Shown: positions 1-58,756 of the stretch, one piece after another | Layout: every line of letters starts with the position of its first letter | Numbering within the stretch: the first letter of the stretch is position 1 | Source of the DNA: Eledone cirrhosa | Lineage: Eukaryota | Assembly (NCBI GenBank): GCA_964016885.1 | Contig: OZ024754.1 | Location: 4,402,001 to 4,466,000, forward strand | Reading direction: 5' to 3' | DNA length: 64,000 bases | Made by a program: the position numbers and the translations under genes | Notes under the pieces: model-generated | Seen by the model: the letters and a program-made list of their open reading frames with translations, nothing else | The model's database searches: none | What the model was told of the DNA's origin: nothing

Positions 1-239
1 CATCTCAGGAAACTGGGTTAACTCCGATATAAAACCTGCGGCTCAGTAGTTACCGATGATGTTGATCTTTTCTTCTTTTCGGGTTATAGCTACTGTCGCT
101 CAGAGAGTGGGATTGGTTCAGTGCACAGTCTTTCCTCACTTTAAAAATATTCGTCACGCACAGGCATTGCACGAGTGCATTAATAATTATTAATAGTGTA
201 GTATTATTATTATTATTATTATTATTGTTACTATTATTA

Positions 240-275
<36 letters not shown>

Positions 276-3200
276 CCAATTCAATGATGTTCCAGAACAA
301 TGTAAACGAGATAATTGCCAATTTGGGTTCTGGAACAAAAGAGATCATTGGCAATAAGGGCAGGGGCCCCAAGTTATCACAACCTGGGCCCGCCCGTCAT
401 CGTGCCATTGTAATAGAGCCAAACAGGGCATTTAGTCTTGGCTGCTGGAACGTACGGACGCTGCTTGACGGGGATTCTTTGGAGCGTCCTGAACGAAGGA
501 CCGCTCTTGTTGCGAGGGAGCTTCGACGTTACGATCTTGACATCGTGGCTTTGTCTGAGACGAGGTTAGCTGGAGATGGTCATCTTGCGGAATTTTGTGG
601 AGAATATACATTCTTCTGGAAAGGAAGAGATGAAGGAACCAGAAGAGAGGCTGGGGTGGGATTTGCTGTTAAGACTGTACTGGTGAATAAATTAGAAGAA
701 TTCCCAGTGGGGATTAGTGAGCGTCTTATGTCCATGAGAGTTCCGCTGGACAAGGGAAGATATGCTACCCTGGTGAGTGTGTATGCTCCAACTATGAATT
801 CTGTCGATGAAGAAAAACTGTCCTTTTACCATGCCTTGAAAGGTGTTTTAAGAAATATCCCTCAGGCAGACAAAGTCATCGTGCTTGGTGACTTTAATGC
901 TAGAGTGGGTAGGGATTTTAACACATGGAATGTAATCGGAAGGCATGGGGTGGGAAAGTGTAACAGCAATGGTATGCTCTTGCTGCAGATGTGTGAGGAG
1001 CTAGATCTGTGTGTTACCAACACCATGTTCCAACAAAAGAACAAATTCAAGACCACATGGATGCATCCTGCATCTAAGGAATGGCATCTTTTGGACTACG
1101 TCCTAGTCAGGATGCGTGACAGACAGGATGTGCAGTGTGTTCGTGTTCTTCGTGGAGCTGAGTGCTGGACGGACCACCGCCTGGTGCGCGCAAAAGTGAA
1201 TCTAATCACCAAACGTAAAATCCGGGCTCCTGGTGTTACCCTGCCCAAAAGATTGAATGCTGCTCGTCTTAAGGATAAAAATGTGAAGAGGACATTGGAA
1301 GAAGAGATGCAGGCTGCAGATCTTGGTGAGGATTGGCCGACCCTTAAAAAGTCGGTTTATGATGTAGGCAGGCGTGTTCTGGGATTGGTGCAGAGAAAAC
1401 ATCAGGACTGGTTTAATGAGAATGATGTACATATAGAAGACTTGTTGGCTGATAAGAGGCGTGCTCTGTCACGCTACTTGACGGCAAAACCACAGGAGAG
1501 GAATACGTTGCATGAGGAGCTCAGGGATGTAAAATCACGTGTTAGGCGGAGTCTTTCTCAGATGAAGGATCAGTGGTGGAGTGAGAAGGCTGGTGAGATA
1601 CAAACTGCGTCTGATTGCAATAACACAAAGCTGTTGTACAGTCTCTTGCGTGAGGTTTATGGACCGTCTTCTTCTCTGGTGACACCGATTCGCAGCAGGG
1701 ATGGCAAAGAACTTCTTCGTGACTCACAGGGAATTCTACGAAGGTGGCGAGAGCACTTTGATGATCTTTTGAATCAGCCGTCTGTCGTCAGTGAAGATTT
1801 CCTCAATCTCATTCCGGAAAGTCCTGTGAAAGTAGCTCTCGCAGAACCTCCGACACTTGTGGAGGTTGCAGTGGCTATTTCGAAGCTGAACAGTGGAAGA
1901 TCTCCAGGTATGGATGGCATACATGCTGAGCTCCTACAATATGGTGGTGAGAGACTCCTGCAACATCTTCACTCTCTGTTTGGAAGGATATGGGCTAATG
2001 AATCCGTGCCTGAGGACTGGAGAGATGCAGTAATGGTGGTCTTGTACAAGGGAAAGGGTAACAGGAATGATTGTGGGAACTACAGAGGTATATCATTGCT
2101 TTCTGTCGTGGGGAAAGTTTTATGTAGGGTGCTTCTGGACCGTCTGCTGACACACATTGCAGATTGTGTCCTTCCTGAAAGTCAATCTGGTTTTCGTGTT
2201 GGACGCGGCACTACTGATATGATCTTCTCAGCTAGACAGCTCCAGGAGAAGTGCATTGAACAGGGCTTGGATCTGTATCAGGTTTTTGTCGATCTGACAA
2301 AGGCTTTCGATACTGTCAACAGAGATGCATTATGGAAGATTCTCCAGAAACTTGGTTGCCCTGATAAGTTCCTTGCTTTAGTTAGGTCTTTCCATGACGA
2401 CATGAGGGCTTGGGTTGATGTCGGAGGTAACATGTCGGAGCCTATCTCAGTAAAAAATGGAGTGAAACAGGGGGATATTCCAGCACCGACCCTGTTTGCC
2501 ATATACTTTGCAATGGTTTTCTGTGTTGCATTCAGGAATTGCGAGCATGGTGTTTACATCCGATATCGAACCTCAGGCAGCATATTTAACATCAGGCGCT
2601 TTGCTGCGAAGACAAAGGTATTTACATCGGTCATAAGAGACCTCTTGTATGCAGATGATTGCGATCTTGTAGCGCACACAGAGAGTGATATGCAGCACAT
2701 TTTGAATGTATTTTCTGACGCTTGCACTGCCCTGGGTTTGACTGTCAGTCTCAAGAAAACCGTCGTCATGTACCAACCTGCACCTGGTAGGCAGTACACT
2801 GAACCAAACATCTATGTGTATGGCAAACGACTTGGAGTGGTTGATCAGTTTGTCTACCTGGGAAGCACTGTCAATCGATACGGCAACCTTGACAGTGAAA
2901 TCTCACTTAGGATTAGGAAAGCAAGTGATGCTTTCGGAAAGCTAGAAAGGCGACTCTGGGGTCGGCGAGACATATGCAGGAGGACAAAGGTAAGGGTGTA
3001 CAGGGCATGTGTACTCTCTTGTCTTCTTTATGCCTGCGAGACCTGGGTCACATATCGACGCCACCTTAGGCAATTGGAGCGTTTCCATCAGATGTGTCTC
3101 AGACGGATACATGGCGTTCGCTGGAGGGACCACATCAGTGATGTCGAGATTTTGGAAAGCTCTATGTGTGACAGTATAGAAGCTCTTGTGCTTAAGCAGC

Positions 3201-3837
3201 GACTCCGTTGGAGTGGTCACCTTGCCAGGATGAAGGATTCTAGAATACCAAAACAACTCTTCTATGGAGAGTTGGTTAAAGGAAAACGACCGCCACATAA
3301 ACCAAAAAAGAGGTATAAGGATTCCTTGAAGGCCTCTCTGAAAGACGCTAACATCTCTGCTGATACATGGGAAAATATTGCTGCTGATCGTAATAAATGG
3401 AGAAAGACTGTATATGAGGGAAAAGTTGCCTTTGAGGCATCTCGAATCGCACACGAGAAAGTAAAGCGGGACGTGAGGAAGGGTATTGCTGTTGCACTTC
3501 CAGACGGCGAGGGTCCTCCTATGTTTCTGACATGCAGCGTCTGTGCGAGACTCTGCCTAAGCAAAGCTGGACTCGAAAGTCATCTTCGCAGTCATAAAGT
3601 AAGACCAGTGGTTGACTACCAGGCTGCTGTTGGAGATGCTACTCATCATGCTTGCCAAACATGTGGTAGAGAATGTAAATCAGCAGGAGGACTCAAGCGA
3701 CATGCAAAAGTACACGAACTCCAACCACAGCCGACTATTCCCAGTAAATGTTTTGGTTGCCGACTCTGTGCAAGACATTTTAGATCATTGGCTGGGCTAA
3801 AAAGCCACATTCGATCGCAGCACTGTTAGTTGCTATC

Positions 3838-4198: not shown

Positions 4199-4252
<54 letters not shown>

Positions 4253-4360
4253 TTTTTTTTTTTTATTTTTTTTTATTTTATTTATTTTTTTTTTATTGTG
4301 CAATGGCCATACTCGATAACGAGGGGGCAGCCATCATGTATGTATGTATGTATGTATGTA
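1..4360 (+). mobile_element. RTE LINE copy: 5' UTR runs off the window start; 3' end motif at 4298-4337 followed by an (ATGT)n tail
   Basis: Contains the ORF above. Terminal stem-loop TGGCCATA-CTCG-ATAA-CGAG-GGGGCAGCCA precedes (ATGT)n. Both 20-170 and 4298-4337 have homologues in the element at 53748-54161. UTRs are interrupted by microsatellites (181-275, 3838-4296). Confidence 0.85.
284..3829 (+). CDS. RTE-clade non-LTR retrotransposon polyprotein: APE endonuclease + reverse transcriptase + three C-terminal C2H2 zinc fingers (1181 aa, uninterrupted)
   Basis: APE motifs WNVRTL, SETR, YAPT, GDFNARVG, LLDYVLV, TDHRLV. RT motifs QSGFR, FVDLTKAFDTV, GVKQGD, YADD, YLG. RTE-type C-terminus RLRWSGHLARM..RIPKQLFYGEL..GKR. 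Three CxxC-x12-H-x3/4-H fingers. The true start codon is uncertain. Confidence 0.96.
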   Translation: MMFQNNVNEIIANLGSGTKEIIGNKGRGPKLSQPGPARHRAIVIEPNRAFSLGCWNVRTLLDGDSLERPERRTALVARELRRYDLDIVALSETRLAGDGHLAEFCGEYTFFWKGRDEGTRREAGVGFAVKTVLVNKLEEFPVGISERLMSMRVPLDKGRYATLVSVYAPTMNSVDEEKLSFYHALKGVLRNIPQADKVIVLGDFNARVGRDFNTWNVIGRHGVGKCNSNGMLLLQMCEELDLCVTNTMFQQKNKFKTTWMHPASKEWHLLDYVLVRMRDRQDVQCVRVLRGAECWTDHRLVRAKVNLITKRKIRAPGVTLPKRLNAARLKDKNVKRTLEEEMQAADLGEDWPTLKKSVYDVGRRVLGLVQRKHQDWFNENDVHIEDLLADKRRALSRYLTAKPQERNTLHEELRDVKSRVRRSLSQMKDQWWSEKAGEIQTASDCNNTKLLYSLLREVYGPSSSLVTPIRSRDGKELLRDSQGILRRWREHFDDLLNQPSVVSEDFLNLIPESPVKVALAEPPTLVEVAVAISKLNSGRSPGMDGIHAELLQYGGERLLQHLHSLFGRIWANESVPEDWRDAVMVVLYKGKGNRNDCGNYRGISLLSVVGKVLCRVLLDRLLTHIADCVLPESQSGFRVGRGTTDMIFSARQLQEKCIEQGLDLYQVFVDLTKAFDTVNRDALWKILQKLGCPDKFLALVRSFHDDMRAWVDVGGNMSEPISVKNGVKQGDIPAPTLFAIYFAMVFCVAFRNCEHGVYIRYRTSGSIFNIRRFAAKTKVFTSVIRDLLYADDCDLVAHTESDMQHILNVFSDACTALGLTVSLKKTVVMYQPAPGRQYTEPNIYVYGKRLGVVDQFVYLGSTVNRYGNLDSEISLRIRKASDAFGKLERRLWGRRDICRRTKVRVYRACVLSCLLYACETWVTYRRHLRQLERFHQMCLRRIHGVRWRDHISDVEILESSMCDSIEALVLKQRLRWSGHLARMKDSRIPKQLFYGELVKGKRPPHKPKKRYKDSLKASLKDANISADTWENIAADRNKWRKTVYEGKVAFEASRIAHEKVKRDVRKGIAVALPDGEGPPMFLTCSVCARLCLSKAGLESHLRSHKVRPVVDYQAAVGDATHHACQTCGRECKSAGGLKRHAKVHELQPQPTIPSKCFGCRLCARHFRSLAGLKSHIRSQHC

Positions 4361-42739: not shown

Positions 42740-42802
42740 CAACTATCTCTGTGTCTGTAGGTCTGTTTATAGGTAAATCTGTCGTCCTATCTATCTGTCT
42801 GC

Positions 42803-43525
42803 ACTGCTCGGTGAAACTCTGGGCGTAGAGGAAGACGAACTGGCCAGTCTGTTCGGTAGGACCTTCCGCCCGGGACCGATGGACAAATTCCAAAAGTCCC
42901 TGGCCTGGCAATGCTACCGAGGAGCTCTACCAGTTCGAGACAAGCTCTACAAACATGGGCGTCCGAGCAGGGACCCTGCAAAAAAGATCTGTCCGAGGTG
43001 CGTACGCGACGAAGAAACCGTCGCGCACGCATTCATACACTGCCCGGGCGTCACCGACCTGTGGGGCTATGTAGAACGACTATTGTCGCGGGTGGGACCA
43101 ATCCGGTTGACCACCGAGTCCATTGTCATGATCAAACCGCCACCCTCCTTCAAAAACGAAGGAGAGGCGGTTTTCCTTTGTGTGATAGCTATGGCGAAAG
43201 AGGTTGTACCCCAGCAAGTTTTATGAAAGGTGGGTGAAAGTGGCGAGAATGGCCCGAGTGAATGGGCCTTCTCTCTATATCAGCCTGTAGGTTGAGGAAA
43301 AGGAGGAGGATAGGAAAGGAGTACAAACTCTTCGTACTCCTGAAGATGAGGGTTGCACATTTTTTCGGGGGTATGTGTTACCCATATGAACTGTCTCCCT
43401 CTATTGGGGAAAATCGACTAATTTTTAAATTACATTTGTGATAATATTTTACACGTTTTTATTGCATGTAAACTTCCCCCTTTGTATTTGTCCCCTTCTT
43501 TTGTGCCCCTGTGGCTAATAAAAAA
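42803..43525 (+). mobile_element. 3' fragment of an L1/Tx1-clade LINE (zf-RVT domain) in (TCTG)n/(TCTA)n
   Basis: ORF 42879-43226: AWQCYRGALPVRDKL...CPRCVRDEETVAHAFIHC...W (CxxC-H-C); GC-rich island; ends AATAAAAAA. Confidence 0.8.
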
Positions 43526-50772: not shown

Positions 50773-51062
50773 TTTTGGATGGCCATTGACTATTAAGAGC
50801 TCCTTTGCCCTTTGACAGGTTTTGTTTTTAGTCCTGCAGGATGTCCAAAGTCACCCTCCTCACCAAGAAACCTTGGTGTGGTTGCCAGTTTAGTCGCCAA
50901 CGACCCGACCATGGGACAGGTTGTACTGGGATACATGTTACCAGTAGCACTAACTGGTGACCTGACATATATATACATACATATATATATACATACATAT
51001 ATATATACATACATATATATATATACATACATATATACATACATATATATATATATACATAC

Positions 51063-51094
<32 letters not shown>

Positions 51095-51924
51095 GCATAT
51101 ATACATACATACATATACATACATATACGCATATATACATACATACATATACATACATATACGCATATATACATACATACATACATACATATATACATAC
51201 ATATATATATATATATACATGGTGGCTGCCAACTCGTTTTCGAGTACGGCCACTACTTTATAACCATGTAGGAGAACCCCTACCGATACGCTGAACGAGT
51301 GTGACTTTTTAGTCCAGCCAGCGACTTGAAAACTCTGGTACAAACACTACACTTGTGACAATTATTGACACATAGTGCTGGGCCCATGGTACCATGTAAT
51401 GACAAGTGCAGAGAGATCTCCAGATACAAAGCAATGCCTGTGCCGTGAAGCTTTTATAGTGAGCAAAGGCACTGCACAAAGCCAGTCCCACTCTCTTAAC
51501 CAAGATGATATTTACCAAAAAGAAGAACAAGTCAACATCATTGGATACCATCAGGGTTGCAGGTGTTATATCAGAGTTTTCCTTCTCCTAGAATTCTGCC
51601 TTGACAAAGGCTAAGGGGTCATCTCTCCCGGTGATTTTGGATGGCCATTGACTCTTAAGAGCTCCTTTGCCCTTTGACAGGTTTTGTTTTTAGTCCTGCA
51701 GGATGTCCAAAGTCACCCTCCTCACCAAGAAACCTTGGTGTGGTTGCCAGTTTAGTCGCCAACGACCCGACCATGGGACAGGTTGTACTGGGATACATGT
51801 TACCAGTAGCACTAACTGGTGACCTGACATATATATACATACATATATATATACATACATATATATATACATACATATATATATATACATACATATATAC
51901 ATACATATATATATATATACATAC

Positions 51925-51956
<32 letters not shown>

Positions 51957-53073
51957 GCATATATACATACATACATATACATACATATACGCATATATAC
52001 ATACATACATATACATACATATACGCATATATACATACATACATACATACATATATACATACATATATATATATATATACATGGTGGCTGCCAACTCGTT
52101 TTCGAGTACGGCCACTACTTTATAACCATGTAGGAGAACCCCTACCGATACGCTGAACGAGTGTGACTTTTTAGTCCAGCCAGCGACTTGAAAACTCTGG
52201 TACAAACACTACACTTGTGACAATTATTGACACATAGTGCTGGGCCCATGGTACCATGTAATGACAAGTGCAGAGAGATCTCCAGATACAAAGCAATGCC
52301 TGTGCCGTGAAGCTTTTATAGTGAGCAAAGGCACTGCACAAAGCCAGTCCCACTCTCTTAACCAAGATGATATTTACCAAAAAGAAGAACAAGTCAACAT
52401 CATTGGATACCATCAGGGTTGCAGGTGTTATATCAGAGTTTTCCTTCTCCTAGAATTCTGCCTTGACAAAGGCTAAGGGGTCATCTCTCCCGGTGATTTT
52501 GGATGGCCATTGACTCTTAAGAGCTCCTTTGCCCTTTGACAGGTTTTGTTTTTAGTCCTGCAGGATGTCCAAAGTCACCCTCCTCACCAAGAAACCTTGG
52601 TGTGGTTGCCAGTTTAGTCGCCAACGACCCGACCATGAGACAGGTTGTACTGGGATACATGTTACCAGTAGCACCAAGTGGTGACCTGACATAATATATA
52701 TACATACATATATACATACATACATACATATATACATACATATATATATATATACATATATACATACATATATGCATATATACATACATACATACATATA
52801 TACATACATATATATATATATATATACATACATACATATATACATACATATATATATATATACATATATACATACATATATATATATATACATATATACA
52901 TACATATATATATATACATATATACATACATATATATATATATACATATATACATACATATATATATATATACATATATACATACATATATATATACATA
53001 TATACATACATATATATATACATATATACATACATATATATATACATATATACATACATATATATATACATAT

Positions 53074-53122
<49 letters not shown>

Positions 53123-53181
53123 CATATATGCATATATACATACATATATATATATATATATATACATACATATATGCATAT

Positions 53182-53224
<43 letters not shown>

Positions 53225-53747
53225 CATATATGCATATATACATACATACATACATATATACATACATATATATATATATACACATACATGGTGGCTGCCA
53301 ACTCGTTTTCGAGTACGACCACTACTTTATATCCATGTAGGAGAACCCCTACGGATGAGCTGAATGAGTGTGGCTTTTTAGTCCAGCCAGCGACTTGAAA
53401 ACTCTGGTACAAACACTACACTTGTGACAATTATTGACACATAGTGCTGGGCCCATGGTACCATGTGACGACAAGTGCAGAGAGATCTCCAGATATAAAG
53501 CAATGCCTGTGCCGTGAAGCTTTTATAGTGAGCAAAGGCACTGCACAAAGCCAGTCCCACTCTCTTAACCAAGATGATATTTACCAAAAAGAAGAACAAG
53601 TCAACATCATTGGATACCATCAGGGTTGTAGGTGTTATATTAAAGTTTTCTTCTCCTAGAATTCTGCCTTCACAAAGGGTAAGGGGTCATCTCTCCCAGT
53701 GATTTTGGATGGCCATTGACTCTTAAGAGCTCCTTTGCCCTTTGACA
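50773..53747 (-). mobile_element. Tandem array (862-bp period; third unit 1206 bp) of a non-coding RTE-derived bipartite element with (ATGT/AT)n tails
   Basis: TTTTGGATGGCCATTGACT recurs at 50773, 51635, 52497 and 53703; the element matches both UTR ends of the LINE at 1-4360. Confidence 0.88.
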
Positions 53748-54178
53748 GGGAGAGATGACCCCTTAGCCTTTGTCAAGGCAGAATTCTAGGAGTAGGAAAA
53801 CTCTGATATAACACCTGCAACCCTGATGGTTTCCAATGATGTTGACTTGTTCTTCTTTTTGGTAAATATCATCTTGGTTAAGAGAGTGGGACTGGCTTTG
53901 AGCAGTGCCTTTGCTCACTATAAAAGCTTCATGGCACAGACATTGCTTTATATCTGGAGATCTCTCTGCACTTGTCGTCACATGGTACCATGGGCCCAGC
54001 ACTATGTGTCAATAATTGTCACAAGTGTAGTGTTTGTACCAGAGTTTTCAAGTCGCTGGCTGGACTAAAAAGTCACACTCGTTCAGCGCATCGTTAGGGG
54101 TTCTCCTACATGGATATAAAGTAGTGGCCGTACTCGAAAACGAGTTGGCAGCCACCACCATGTATATATATATATATG
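53748..54178 (+). mobile_element. Inverted, 5'-truncated copy of the same bipartite RTE-derived element
   Basis: Reverse complement of 53287-53697 with substitutions; ends GGCAGCCACCACCATGTA. Confidence 0.88.
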
Positions 54179-57727: not shown

Positions 57728-58425
57728 ATATATATATATATGAATAAAGTTAGTCCTTCATCAGTGATCTTCCAACCATCATTGGTATTTCATCGCTTTA
57801 AAGACCATATACCTCCGGTTGGTGCGAGCAATGGCTAAAATAAGTCGTTGGGACACGTAAATAAAGGGGACACGAGTGTAAACAAACAAAGATGGTGAAG
57901 CAACGAAAAGTGAGGAAGAAGAAGTCAAGTCCCAAATTTCTATGAATATAAATTCGGTGAAATCGTGAACGAGAGAGAATAAAGACCATCAAACCTGGTT
58001 GGAATGTGAGCAAGGAAGGAATTCCGTACAGGTCTAACGGGAGGAAGAAGGGATCTAGTCTGTGAATTCGGTGAACGTAAGTTCTGTGAAATCGTAGACG
58101 AGAGAGAGAAAAAAAAGCGACCTGCCAGACCAAGGGTGCGAAAGAAAAGAATTACGCACAGGTCAAACGAGAAGAAGGAGGAGGAGGAGGAGAGGTAGTA
58201 ACAGAGAATGAGTGAGTGAAGGGTGAGGAAGAGGCTAACAGAGAGAGTGACTGCTAGAGAGGGTAAAGATACAGAGAAAGAGGAAGCAGTAAGAACGAAA
58301 TAGACGGGTCACAGCGTGGAAAGAATATGTGTAAATATGAGAATAAACATGCTGCGTGGTTGCTAATGGGTTACATATGAATAAAGTTAGTCGTTCATCA
58401 GTGATCTTCCAACCATCATTGGTAT

Positions 58426-58620
58426 ATAAATTTCTCACTCTTACTTCGGCCTCCAAGTGGGAGTTGTCAAGGTGGGTCTCAGTAAGAATGAAGAAGGGGA
58501 TGTGAAATGGATGGTTACCAACCCAATCCTCAATGAATTGGATCTTCCATTTCTGTGCATTGATGGATGGGCTGATACCTTGTGGATTGAGTAAGAATGT
58601 GGAGGCTAGTGTGGTGGCTG
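58426..58620 (-). mobile_element. LINE APE endonuclease N-terminal fragment
   Basis: LLNPQGISPS...KIQFIED...FFILTETHLDNSHLEAEVRV (N..G and TETHL motifs). Confidence 0.6.
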
Positions 58621-58756
58621 GTTTTGACTGTTGCAGGGGGCTTGTTTTGTGATTGTGTGTTAGTGACAGCAAGGATGGTGTTGGGTGATGGCTAAAATGT
58701 TTTTCTCTATATCTTTTGCCAGGTTCATGGTTAAAAAAGAAAGATTTATATATATA

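Follow-up and report, generated by a model that had tools for sequence, protein, structure and literature searches.

The N1 Locus and the Window LINE

The window analysed here, a stretch of 64,000 nucleotides (nt) of the Eledone cirrhosa genome (assembly GCA_964016885.1, contig OZ024754.1, positions 4,402,001 to 4,466,000, forward strand), contains several copies of a short retroelement, named N1, and a long interspersed nuclear element (LINE), named RTE-W, with an intact open reading frame (ORF). Judged by its sequence, N1 is a bipartite non-autonomous RTE LINE, a new element of a known kind, and its two LINE-related parts show mutual complementarity. With a length of 610 nt (51828 to 51219, minus strand), the unit bears out the size given by a first-pass annotation of this DNA.

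Two copies are complete: copy A (51219–51828, minus strand) and copy B (52081–52690, minus strand), which differs from A by 3 substitutions. Copy C (53288–53749, minus strand) is 5′-truncated at element position 148, and copy D (53748–54158, plus strand) at about position 200; a further fragment, A0 (50773–50967, minus strand), consists of the head alone (positions 1–195). The copies are separated by (AT)/(ATGT)n target and tail arrays at 50968–51218 (251 nt), 51829–52080 (252 nt) and 52691–53287 (597 nt). A tandem duplication of 862 bp spans 50773–52496, and its halves (50773–51634 and 51635–52496), which include an identical microsatellite of about 250 nt, differ at one base; therefore, A and B represent a local duplication or an assembly repeat rather than two insertions. 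Copies C and D differ by 16 substitutions and 1 gap over 410 nt, and since 16 of 410 bases differ, they stem from two templates. At window position 53749, these two different, 5′-truncated copies meet head-to-head without a spacer and with 2 nt of microhomology, possibly as a result of two priming events at one site.

RTE-W encodes 1181 amino acids (aa) at 284–3829 (plus strand). This single ORF, which matches both Pfam PF03372 and PF00078, comprises an APE endonuclease, a reverse transcriptase (RT) and three C2H2 fingers. This architecture, together with motifs in the untranslated regions (UTRs) that match those of named RTEs, points to the RTE clade. The 5′-UTR motif lies at 106–174 (plus strand) and contains, at 165–174, the 5′ strand of a predicted helix; the 3′ part (4296–4337, plus strand) holds the other strand (4296–4305), the terminal hairpin (4312–4323) and the end. 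The family is very young: all 150 scored copies are 99–100% identical over 222 aa, and 824 exact matches to the 5′ motif were counted. The ORF is flanked by similar (ATT)n-(T)n tracts (179–280 and 4204–4304 of the window), and both UTRs encode microsatellites (L063–L081). RTE-2_OV of Octopus vulgaris, likened to RTE-W by architecture, also has a single ORF with endonuclease, RT and C2H2 finger as well as long UTRs, and its protein measures 1109 aa against the 1181 of RTE-W (PMC9115989).

Anatomy and Class of N1

N1 begins with a head of 190 nt (51639–51828; minus strand, as for all copy A coordinates that follow), which is common to three sister families, N2–N4, at 77–83% identity and gives no tRNA or Rfam match. 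It is absent from the window LINE: head positions 1–190 match neither the upstream flank of that LINE nor any of 20 fetched RTE-W 5′ ends. Positions 192–398 match the RTE-W 5′ UTR at 68–69%. They include an RTE 5′-UTR block of the Ceph-domain type (51571–51616), of which 23 nt are, by eye, identical to OegopSINE in the available Fig. S1 of Kojima 2018, and the conserved RTE 5′-UTR motif (51437–51493), for which a stem (S1), an A-rich linker and a possible loop pseudoknot of 4–5 bp (S2) are predicted. Further downstream lie the 5′ strand of a predicted long-range helix (51422–51436), a remnant of the RTE ORF C-terminus (51280–51421), the 3′ strand of the helix (51252–51266) and the 3′ terminus (51219–51251), with a CTCG/CGAG hairpin (51244–51233) and the end GCAGCCACCAT. 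In copy D, the motif, 5′ strand, remnant, 3′ strand and terminus occupy 53884–53940, 53941–53955, 53956–54097, 54111–54125 and 54126–54158, respectively.

Both LINE-related parts had been proposed in the first-pass annotation, and both alignments hold. The block at 53799–53946 is colinear with 20–170 (72% identity, E 1e-12 within the window); the same match is found in copies A and B (73%, E 2e-15), and self-BLAST of the window places it on the minus strand at 51578–51431, 52440–52293 and 53613–53500. The local alignment scores 143 against 30±5 for shuffled sequences (maximum 58, 500 shuffles). The 3′ end, hairpin included, matches LINE positions 4293–4337 at 78% over 45 nt, with a score of 50 against 21±3 (maximum 37, 500 shuffles). 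The proposed origin from the LINE 5′ UTR thus stands for positions 192–398 and fails for positions 1–190, which match none of the 20 5′ ends compared from the window LINE family. Likewise, an ATGT tail follows ...CACC in 41 of 84 copies, but the tail is not uniformly (ATGT)n: ATAT is found in 39 of 84 and other letters in 4 of 84.

The middle of the element had been read as some 170 nt replacing the whole ORF. These bases are not foreign sequence; they comprise an ORF remnant, with the last C2H2 finger and stop, and 3′ UTR. The remnant (positions ~408–549) aligns to the last zinc finger of the LINE and matches Pfam zf-C2H2 (E 5.8e-5), falling slightly short of the curated cut-off. When the 610 nt were translated in three frames, no intact endonuclease or RT ORF appeared. 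ARAGORN found 0 tRNAs in N1, in line with the earlier remark that no tRNA head is visible; no Rfam match reached a family's gathering score, and none was to a tRNA, 5S, 7SL or ribozyme family. In e-value mode, Rfam returned 99 sub-threshold matches, nearly all microsatellite look-alikes of miRNA families. Because no tRNA, 5S or 7SL head was found, N1 is not a short interspersed nuclear element (SINE) proper (SINE1/2/3). A miniature inverted-repeat transposable element or a satellite is excluded by the asymmetric ends and the dispersed 5′-truncated copies, the C/D inversion being local.

A Young and Dispersed Family

Genome-wide, the internal junction of N1 has 25,115 exact matches, which rules out a one-off deletion product, and the 3′ end has 25,900; reversed-pattern controls gave 0 for each. 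A search of the 3.0-Gb genome returned 1,972 candidates, and the 40 that were scored are full length, 99–100% identical and located on many contigs. Sixty 10-kb samples, taken at even intervals from the four largest contigs, contained 12 N1 pieces in total, spread over 9 of the samples. N1 is present in at least 25,000 copies, a number that rises to about 60,000 if these contigs represent the genome as a whole, and is a major recent component of this genome. The median divergence is 1.7% (n=53 copies outside the top hits).

The insertions were characterized on 101 N1 pieces, a biased set drawn from top hits, targeted loci and random stretches. The 3′ end is retained in 88 of them, and 51 are full length. 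On either side of the element, at least 50% of the flank is (RY)n in 80 of 88 cases. Readable target-site duplications (TSDs) accompany 5 of 88 pieces, and three of these are clean, with lengths of 11–13 bp; microsatellite masks the rest. In addition, loci L033 and L153 carry 5′ inversions of the twin-priming type. A fixed 3′ end, truncations and TSDs are what target-primed reverse transcription into AT/ATGT microsatellites would be expected to leave behind, consistent with the link between RTE 3′ repeats and target choice described in the available part of PMC6007223. The earlier description of N1 as bipartite, non-autonomous, RTE-derived and dispersed is therefore sustained by tens of thousands of copies that share one junction, across many contigs, and by truncations, inversions and TSDs readable in some of them.

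The 5′ end is sharp across copies. TTAT directly precedes GTCAGG in 22 of 50 full-length copies, so that the true 5′ end may sit a few bases further upstream. At several 5′ junctions (L169:3700-3830; L158, L104, L017, L029 and L171), short repeats of the first bases of the element are mixed with AT repeats; such junctions may reflect repeated restarts of synthesis, in which case insertion would lengthen microsatellites. N1 is often located in or beside the ATGT tail of RTE-W-type ends, and copies are stacked in each other's tails (L033, L044, L049, L061, L029, L084). Horizontal transfer was considered and set aside: 43–67% of the words occur under 17 other organism labels, a likely cross-contamination that was not used. 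Three of the runs have a depth of about 3–110, whereas the richest source reaches about a million, and further runs from the sample that gave run X4 contain none. No RNA data set was among the matches, which speaks neither for nor against expression.

Complementarity of the Two Ends

The conserved 5′-UTR motif ends in GCACAGG. In N1–N4 as well as RTE-W, the stretch that directly follows it is complementary to the stretch that directly precedes the 3′ hairpin, with letters that differ by family. The two strands read CATTGCTTTATATCT/GGATATAAAGTAGTG in N1 (15 bp), ATTGCACGATA/TATCGTGCAAT in N2, ATCGCTTGATA/TATCAAGCGAT in N3 and ATTGCTTGT/ACAAGCGAT in N4; in RTE-W, CATTGCACGA at 165–174 faces TTGTGCAATG at 4296–4305 across 4.1 kb. 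The earlier proposal that the conserved blocks mark cis signals for retrotransposition is supported and sharpened, as the two blocks are predicted to pair with each other.

The generality of this pairing was assessed on 80 metagenome loci with RTE relatives, 10 of which were used (near-full ORF and both flanks; 42–51% aa identity over the best segment). Locus L197 was dropped for lack of upstream sequence, and L180 was dropped from the anchored test. In an unanchored comparison of the 28 nt preceding the terminal hairpin with a 5′ region of at most 700 nt, 7 of 11 full-length LINEs had their best duplex immediately downstream of the motif. In an anchored swap test with a 24-nt window, the cognate 3′ strand was the best partner in 13/14 rows and 12/14 columns, with a mean energy of −17.7 kcal/mol for cognate pairs versus −8.0±3.1 kcal/mol for swapped ones (n=176); 200,000 permutations over 11 unrelated clusters yielded no assignment as good as the observed one. 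In 7 of 9 LINEs, the anchored window surpassed all other 5′ windows; energies equal to the observed one arose in 0–49 of 1,000 mononucleotide shuffles.

Applied to 8 copies of N1–N4, RNAalifold returned the helix unprompted; it also predicted S1, the terminal hairpin and one further stem with strong covariation. The structure named here is 95.8% paired in N1–N4, a value that 3 of 500 shuffles matched; two-sided changes are seen in 3 of 8 helix pairs. The further stem joins columns 344–356 and 382–397 of alignment A2, just upstream of S1, and most of its pairs change on both sides. Within N1, variability is 2.3% and 1.7% in the helix columns versus 1.3–2.3% elsewhere, as expected of neutrally decaying copies and thus no guide to selection on the helix.

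Published RTEs and Related Systems

All six LINEs whose two ends were compared in Fig. S1 of Kojima 2018 (PMC5786205) are, by eye, complementary from end to end over 6–10 bp: RTE-3_AMi (CATGACATCG/TGATGTCATG), RTE-1_PSi (CTTGACATC/GATGTCAAG), BovB (ACCCCATGAA/TTCATGGGGT), RTE1_LA (ACCTTATG/CATAGGGT), RTE-11_AMi (GTATGCG/CGTGTAC) and RTE-4_PPo (CCCCCA/TGGGGG). In BovB and RTE1_LA the upstream motif differs. The same figure places the junction inside the loop in WALLSI1A/2, SINE2_Gav, SINE-1_Pmo and CoeSINE4, again by eye. Literature searches found no statement on RTE 5′–3′ UTR pairing, which older papers and patents could contain; end pairing goes unmentioned in the available portions of PMC7245038, PMC4844689, PMC6007223, PMC3747384, PMC13295347, PMC11240701, PMC13708176 and 10.1101/2022.11.04.512097, and in those of the main text and supplement of Kojima 2018.

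Known bipartite RTE LINEs (RTE-N2_Lch, RTESINE1/2, WALLSI3, MAR4 and Bov-A; PMC5786205, available part) resemble N1 in that a 5′-UTR part is joined to an RTE 3′ end, copies are dispersed, an intact ORF and a small-RNA head are missing, and the tail is a short repeat. WALLSI1/1A/2 and RTE-3_AMi share its 5′ motif (AGTG..CACT, A-rich linker, GC(A/G)CA; Fig. S1). N1 differs from this group in keeping about 47 codons of the ORF C-terminus, in its 190-nt head, which is common to four families and absent from the active LINE, and in its AT/ATGT microsatellite targets; moreover, no parent of N1 was found. RTE-mobilized SINEs (Bov-tA, AfroSINE, Ped-1/2, AviRTE SINEs, hagfish SINE1-1_EBu and MonoRep87) have a 5′+3′ RTE-derived tail as well, and those in Fig. 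S1 show end-to-end complementarity by eye, whereas N1 lacks their tRNA, 5S or 7SL head. Ceph-SINEs share the RTE 5′-UTR block that contains the 23 nt of OegopSINE; unlike them, N1 has no tRNA head, no CORE part and a different 3′ end. A structured RNA end has been proposed as an RT signal for the 3′ stem-loop of stringent LINEs, the RTE 3′ hairpin (PMC6007223) and the R2 RNA pseudoknots (PMC12222951), as far as the available text goes. The structure predicted for N1 and RTEs has the same proposed role, but half of it comes from the 5′ UTR and it pairs across the ORF.

Among side observations, the 3′ end of locus L174 closely resembles the "unknown" 3′ end of platypus MonoRep87A/B in Fig. S1, and the MonoRep87 3′ end pairs with its own RTE 5′ part, both by eye.

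A Proposed Split Recognition Structure and Its Alternatives

We consider N1 to be a young, internally deleted RTE element that is likely copied in trans, and the predicted 5′–3′ helix to be the likely recognition site of the protein, one that survives deletions within the loop; we place the probability of this reading at roughly 0.7. N1 would be transcribed from its 190-nt head, probably by RNA polymerase II, and its RNA would fold into a single compact domain made up of S1/S2, the 5′–3′ helix and the terminal hairpin. An RTE protein would bind this domain and nick (AT)/(ATGT)n DNA; through microhomology, priming would then start on the ...CAT end, giving rise to TSDs of about 11 bp. In a full-length LINE, in-loop deletions would keep the signal because the helix closes the loop around the ORF, and such deletions would yield ready-made parasites. 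The broader proposal, that animal RTEs generally recognize their own RNA through a split structure consisting of a 5′-UTR stem/pseudoknot and a helix with the 3′ UTR across the ORF, seems only slightly more probable than its opposite on these comparisons.

Several results weigh against these proposals. The unanchored comparison missed 4 of 11 LINEs (L173, L175, L178 and L180), and L180 has no recognizable motif. The regular expression used as an anchor was written after the sequences had been seen, with L178 and L185 anchored by hand. The S2 pseudoknot shows no two-sided change in the N1–N4 alignment from this genome; such changes were seen by eye in L173 and L175 only. When five N1 copies were folded singly, a procedure that leaves out pseudoknots and protein, the helix had a mean pair probability of 0.00–0.49 and a forcing cost of 0–6.4 kcal/mol; the pair probability was 0.94–1.00 in N2 and N4, and a single decayed copy of N3 gave 0.00. 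Among the closest relatives of copy A, 24 of 28 carry two helix-shortening changes, yet they have spread. Finally, plant RTE-partner SINEs are described with 3′ homology alone in the available parts of PMC6007223 and PMC3747384.

The plant elements, which appear to manage on the 3′ end alone (PMC6007223), also favour the main rival, which is unlikely. It holds that the helix is real and serves the LINE otherwise, in RNA stability, translation control or second-strand/full-length completion, while its part in bipartite elements is mutational, the reverse transcriptase jumping across the loop base and thereby producing deletions. Junctions inside the loop, as seen in N1–N4 and in the published SINEs of the available figure, are predicted by both models. 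Jumping at the loop base fits less well with N1, N3 and N4 keeping the helix with compensatory letters of their own, and with three of the four families retaining short ORF-like remnants in the loop rather than ending at the helix base. That the complementarity is due to chance, or is a by-product of local inverted duplication, appears very improbable: the helices are short (6–15 bp) and the anchors were partly picked after inspection, but the swap, shuffle and position controls speak against chance, the strands lie 3–4 kb apart in full-length LINEs, and the pair sequences differ between families.

A self-cleaving ribozyme is a further candidate that we regard as improbable, either pistol-like and assembled by motif and helix from both ends, or like that of hepatitis delta virus (HDV) and located in the head, where it would set the sharp 5′ end. 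The order of stem, A-rich linker, loop pseudoknot and helix, which we take to resemble that of pistol ribozymes, was counted in its favour, as were the sharpness of the N1 5′ end and the report that RTEs carry ribozymes (Kojima 2018, PMC5786205, available part, citing Ruminski 2011). Neither a conserved pistol P2 nor a scissile dinucleotide is present, and cleavage close to the 3′ end would deprive the element of the end on which it primes. No convincing fold resulted from an HDV descriptor, whose candidate P2 is not kept in N2–N4. Rfam matched no ribozyme, with 0 hits in gathering mode on 17 loci; this negative is weak, because gathering mode gave 0 even for L174, where an HDV-like ribozyme (GCG-TCCACGA-CGC, GG, P4, CGAA) is visible by eye about 600–560 nt upstream of the ORF match.

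Possible Parent and Helper of N1

The split-structure reading requires a protein that acts on N1, and RTE-W is the most likely candidate helper, with a probability that we judge to be moderately better than even. It is favoured as donor because no N1 parent was found and because it has the same predicted fold with different letters. The first-pass annotation had gone further and treated N1 as a deletion product of the LINE at 284–3829; this is contradicted by a body that is just ~69% alike, and the derivative that belongs to this LINE family is N2. This low identity of the body, together with the 78% of the 3′ ends, counts against trans use of N1 by RTE-W.

Mobilization by an RTE parent of its own that escaped detection is the less favoured alternative, though a substantial one. 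It accords with the ~30% difference between N1 and RTE-W in the body, with the existence of N2 as a closely matched derivative of RTE-W, and with the reliance of the parent searches on patterns and samples. The searches themselves point the other way. Three codon-aware patterns returned 10, 0 and 9 matches, all of them N1 variants, and none of 20 loci, selected because their N1 3′ end had no recorded junction, continued into an ORF. When the 56-aa remnant served as a protein query, no database candidate emerged, which is weak evidence. A C-terminal search yielded 65 relatives, 45 of which had their ends compared, none being like N1; in 600 kb of random sequence, tblastn with RTE-W produced a single short match (22 aa) exceeding 45% identity, and no ORF linked to N1. 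A copy at L062 (positions 1–400), pursued as a lead to the parent, was a one-off.

Sister Families and Other Elements

N2 is the bipartite derivative of RTE-W itself (L004:2129-2660; L049; L171; L262–L281). It combines an N1-type head, a part about 90% identical to the RTE-W 5′ UTR, a 25-nt AT-rich loop and the RTE-W 3′ end, and it has 2,625 exact matches. In a sample of 20, 19 run directly into the RTE-W 3′ end and 0 into the ORF, with head motifs kept in 13. N3 (L012, L143) and N4 (L111, L133, L146, L100) are older and have the common head and body with different middles and ends; their loops, too, look like zinc-finger codon remnants (KSLTGLKSH, LKRH). Locus L104 contains an N1/N2 chimera. 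In place of the head that N1–N4 have, the 20 fetched RTE-W 5′ ends carry a different, microsatellite-rich leader, which exceeds 900 nt and contains (CA)n and poly-T; this suggests 5′ switching. Elsewhere in the window lie what we take to be a GIY-YIG/Penelope-like frame (31400–31100, minus strand), an L1/Tx1-type zinc-knuckle end (42777–43226, plus strand) and an endonuclease start (58235–58756, minus strand).

Implications

If RTE proteins do recognize such a split clasp, it would explain the bipartite build of RTE-mobilized SINEs and how N1, despite its different letters, could use another family's protein. It would also explain why RTE-1 gene-writing templates carry both UTRs. RTE-1_MD serves as a gene-insertion tool whose templates, flanked by both UTRs, were optimized by screening (PMC13708176, available part); a structural rule would be of practical use for these templates and would make rational design possible. 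The clasp may also aid annotation, as with the "unknown" 3′ end of MonoRep87. For the RTE family itself, the bias towards bipartite derivatives has been stated to be unexplained (Kojima 2018, PMC5786205, available part), and a 5′–3′ helix that encloses the ORF would offer one testable cause.

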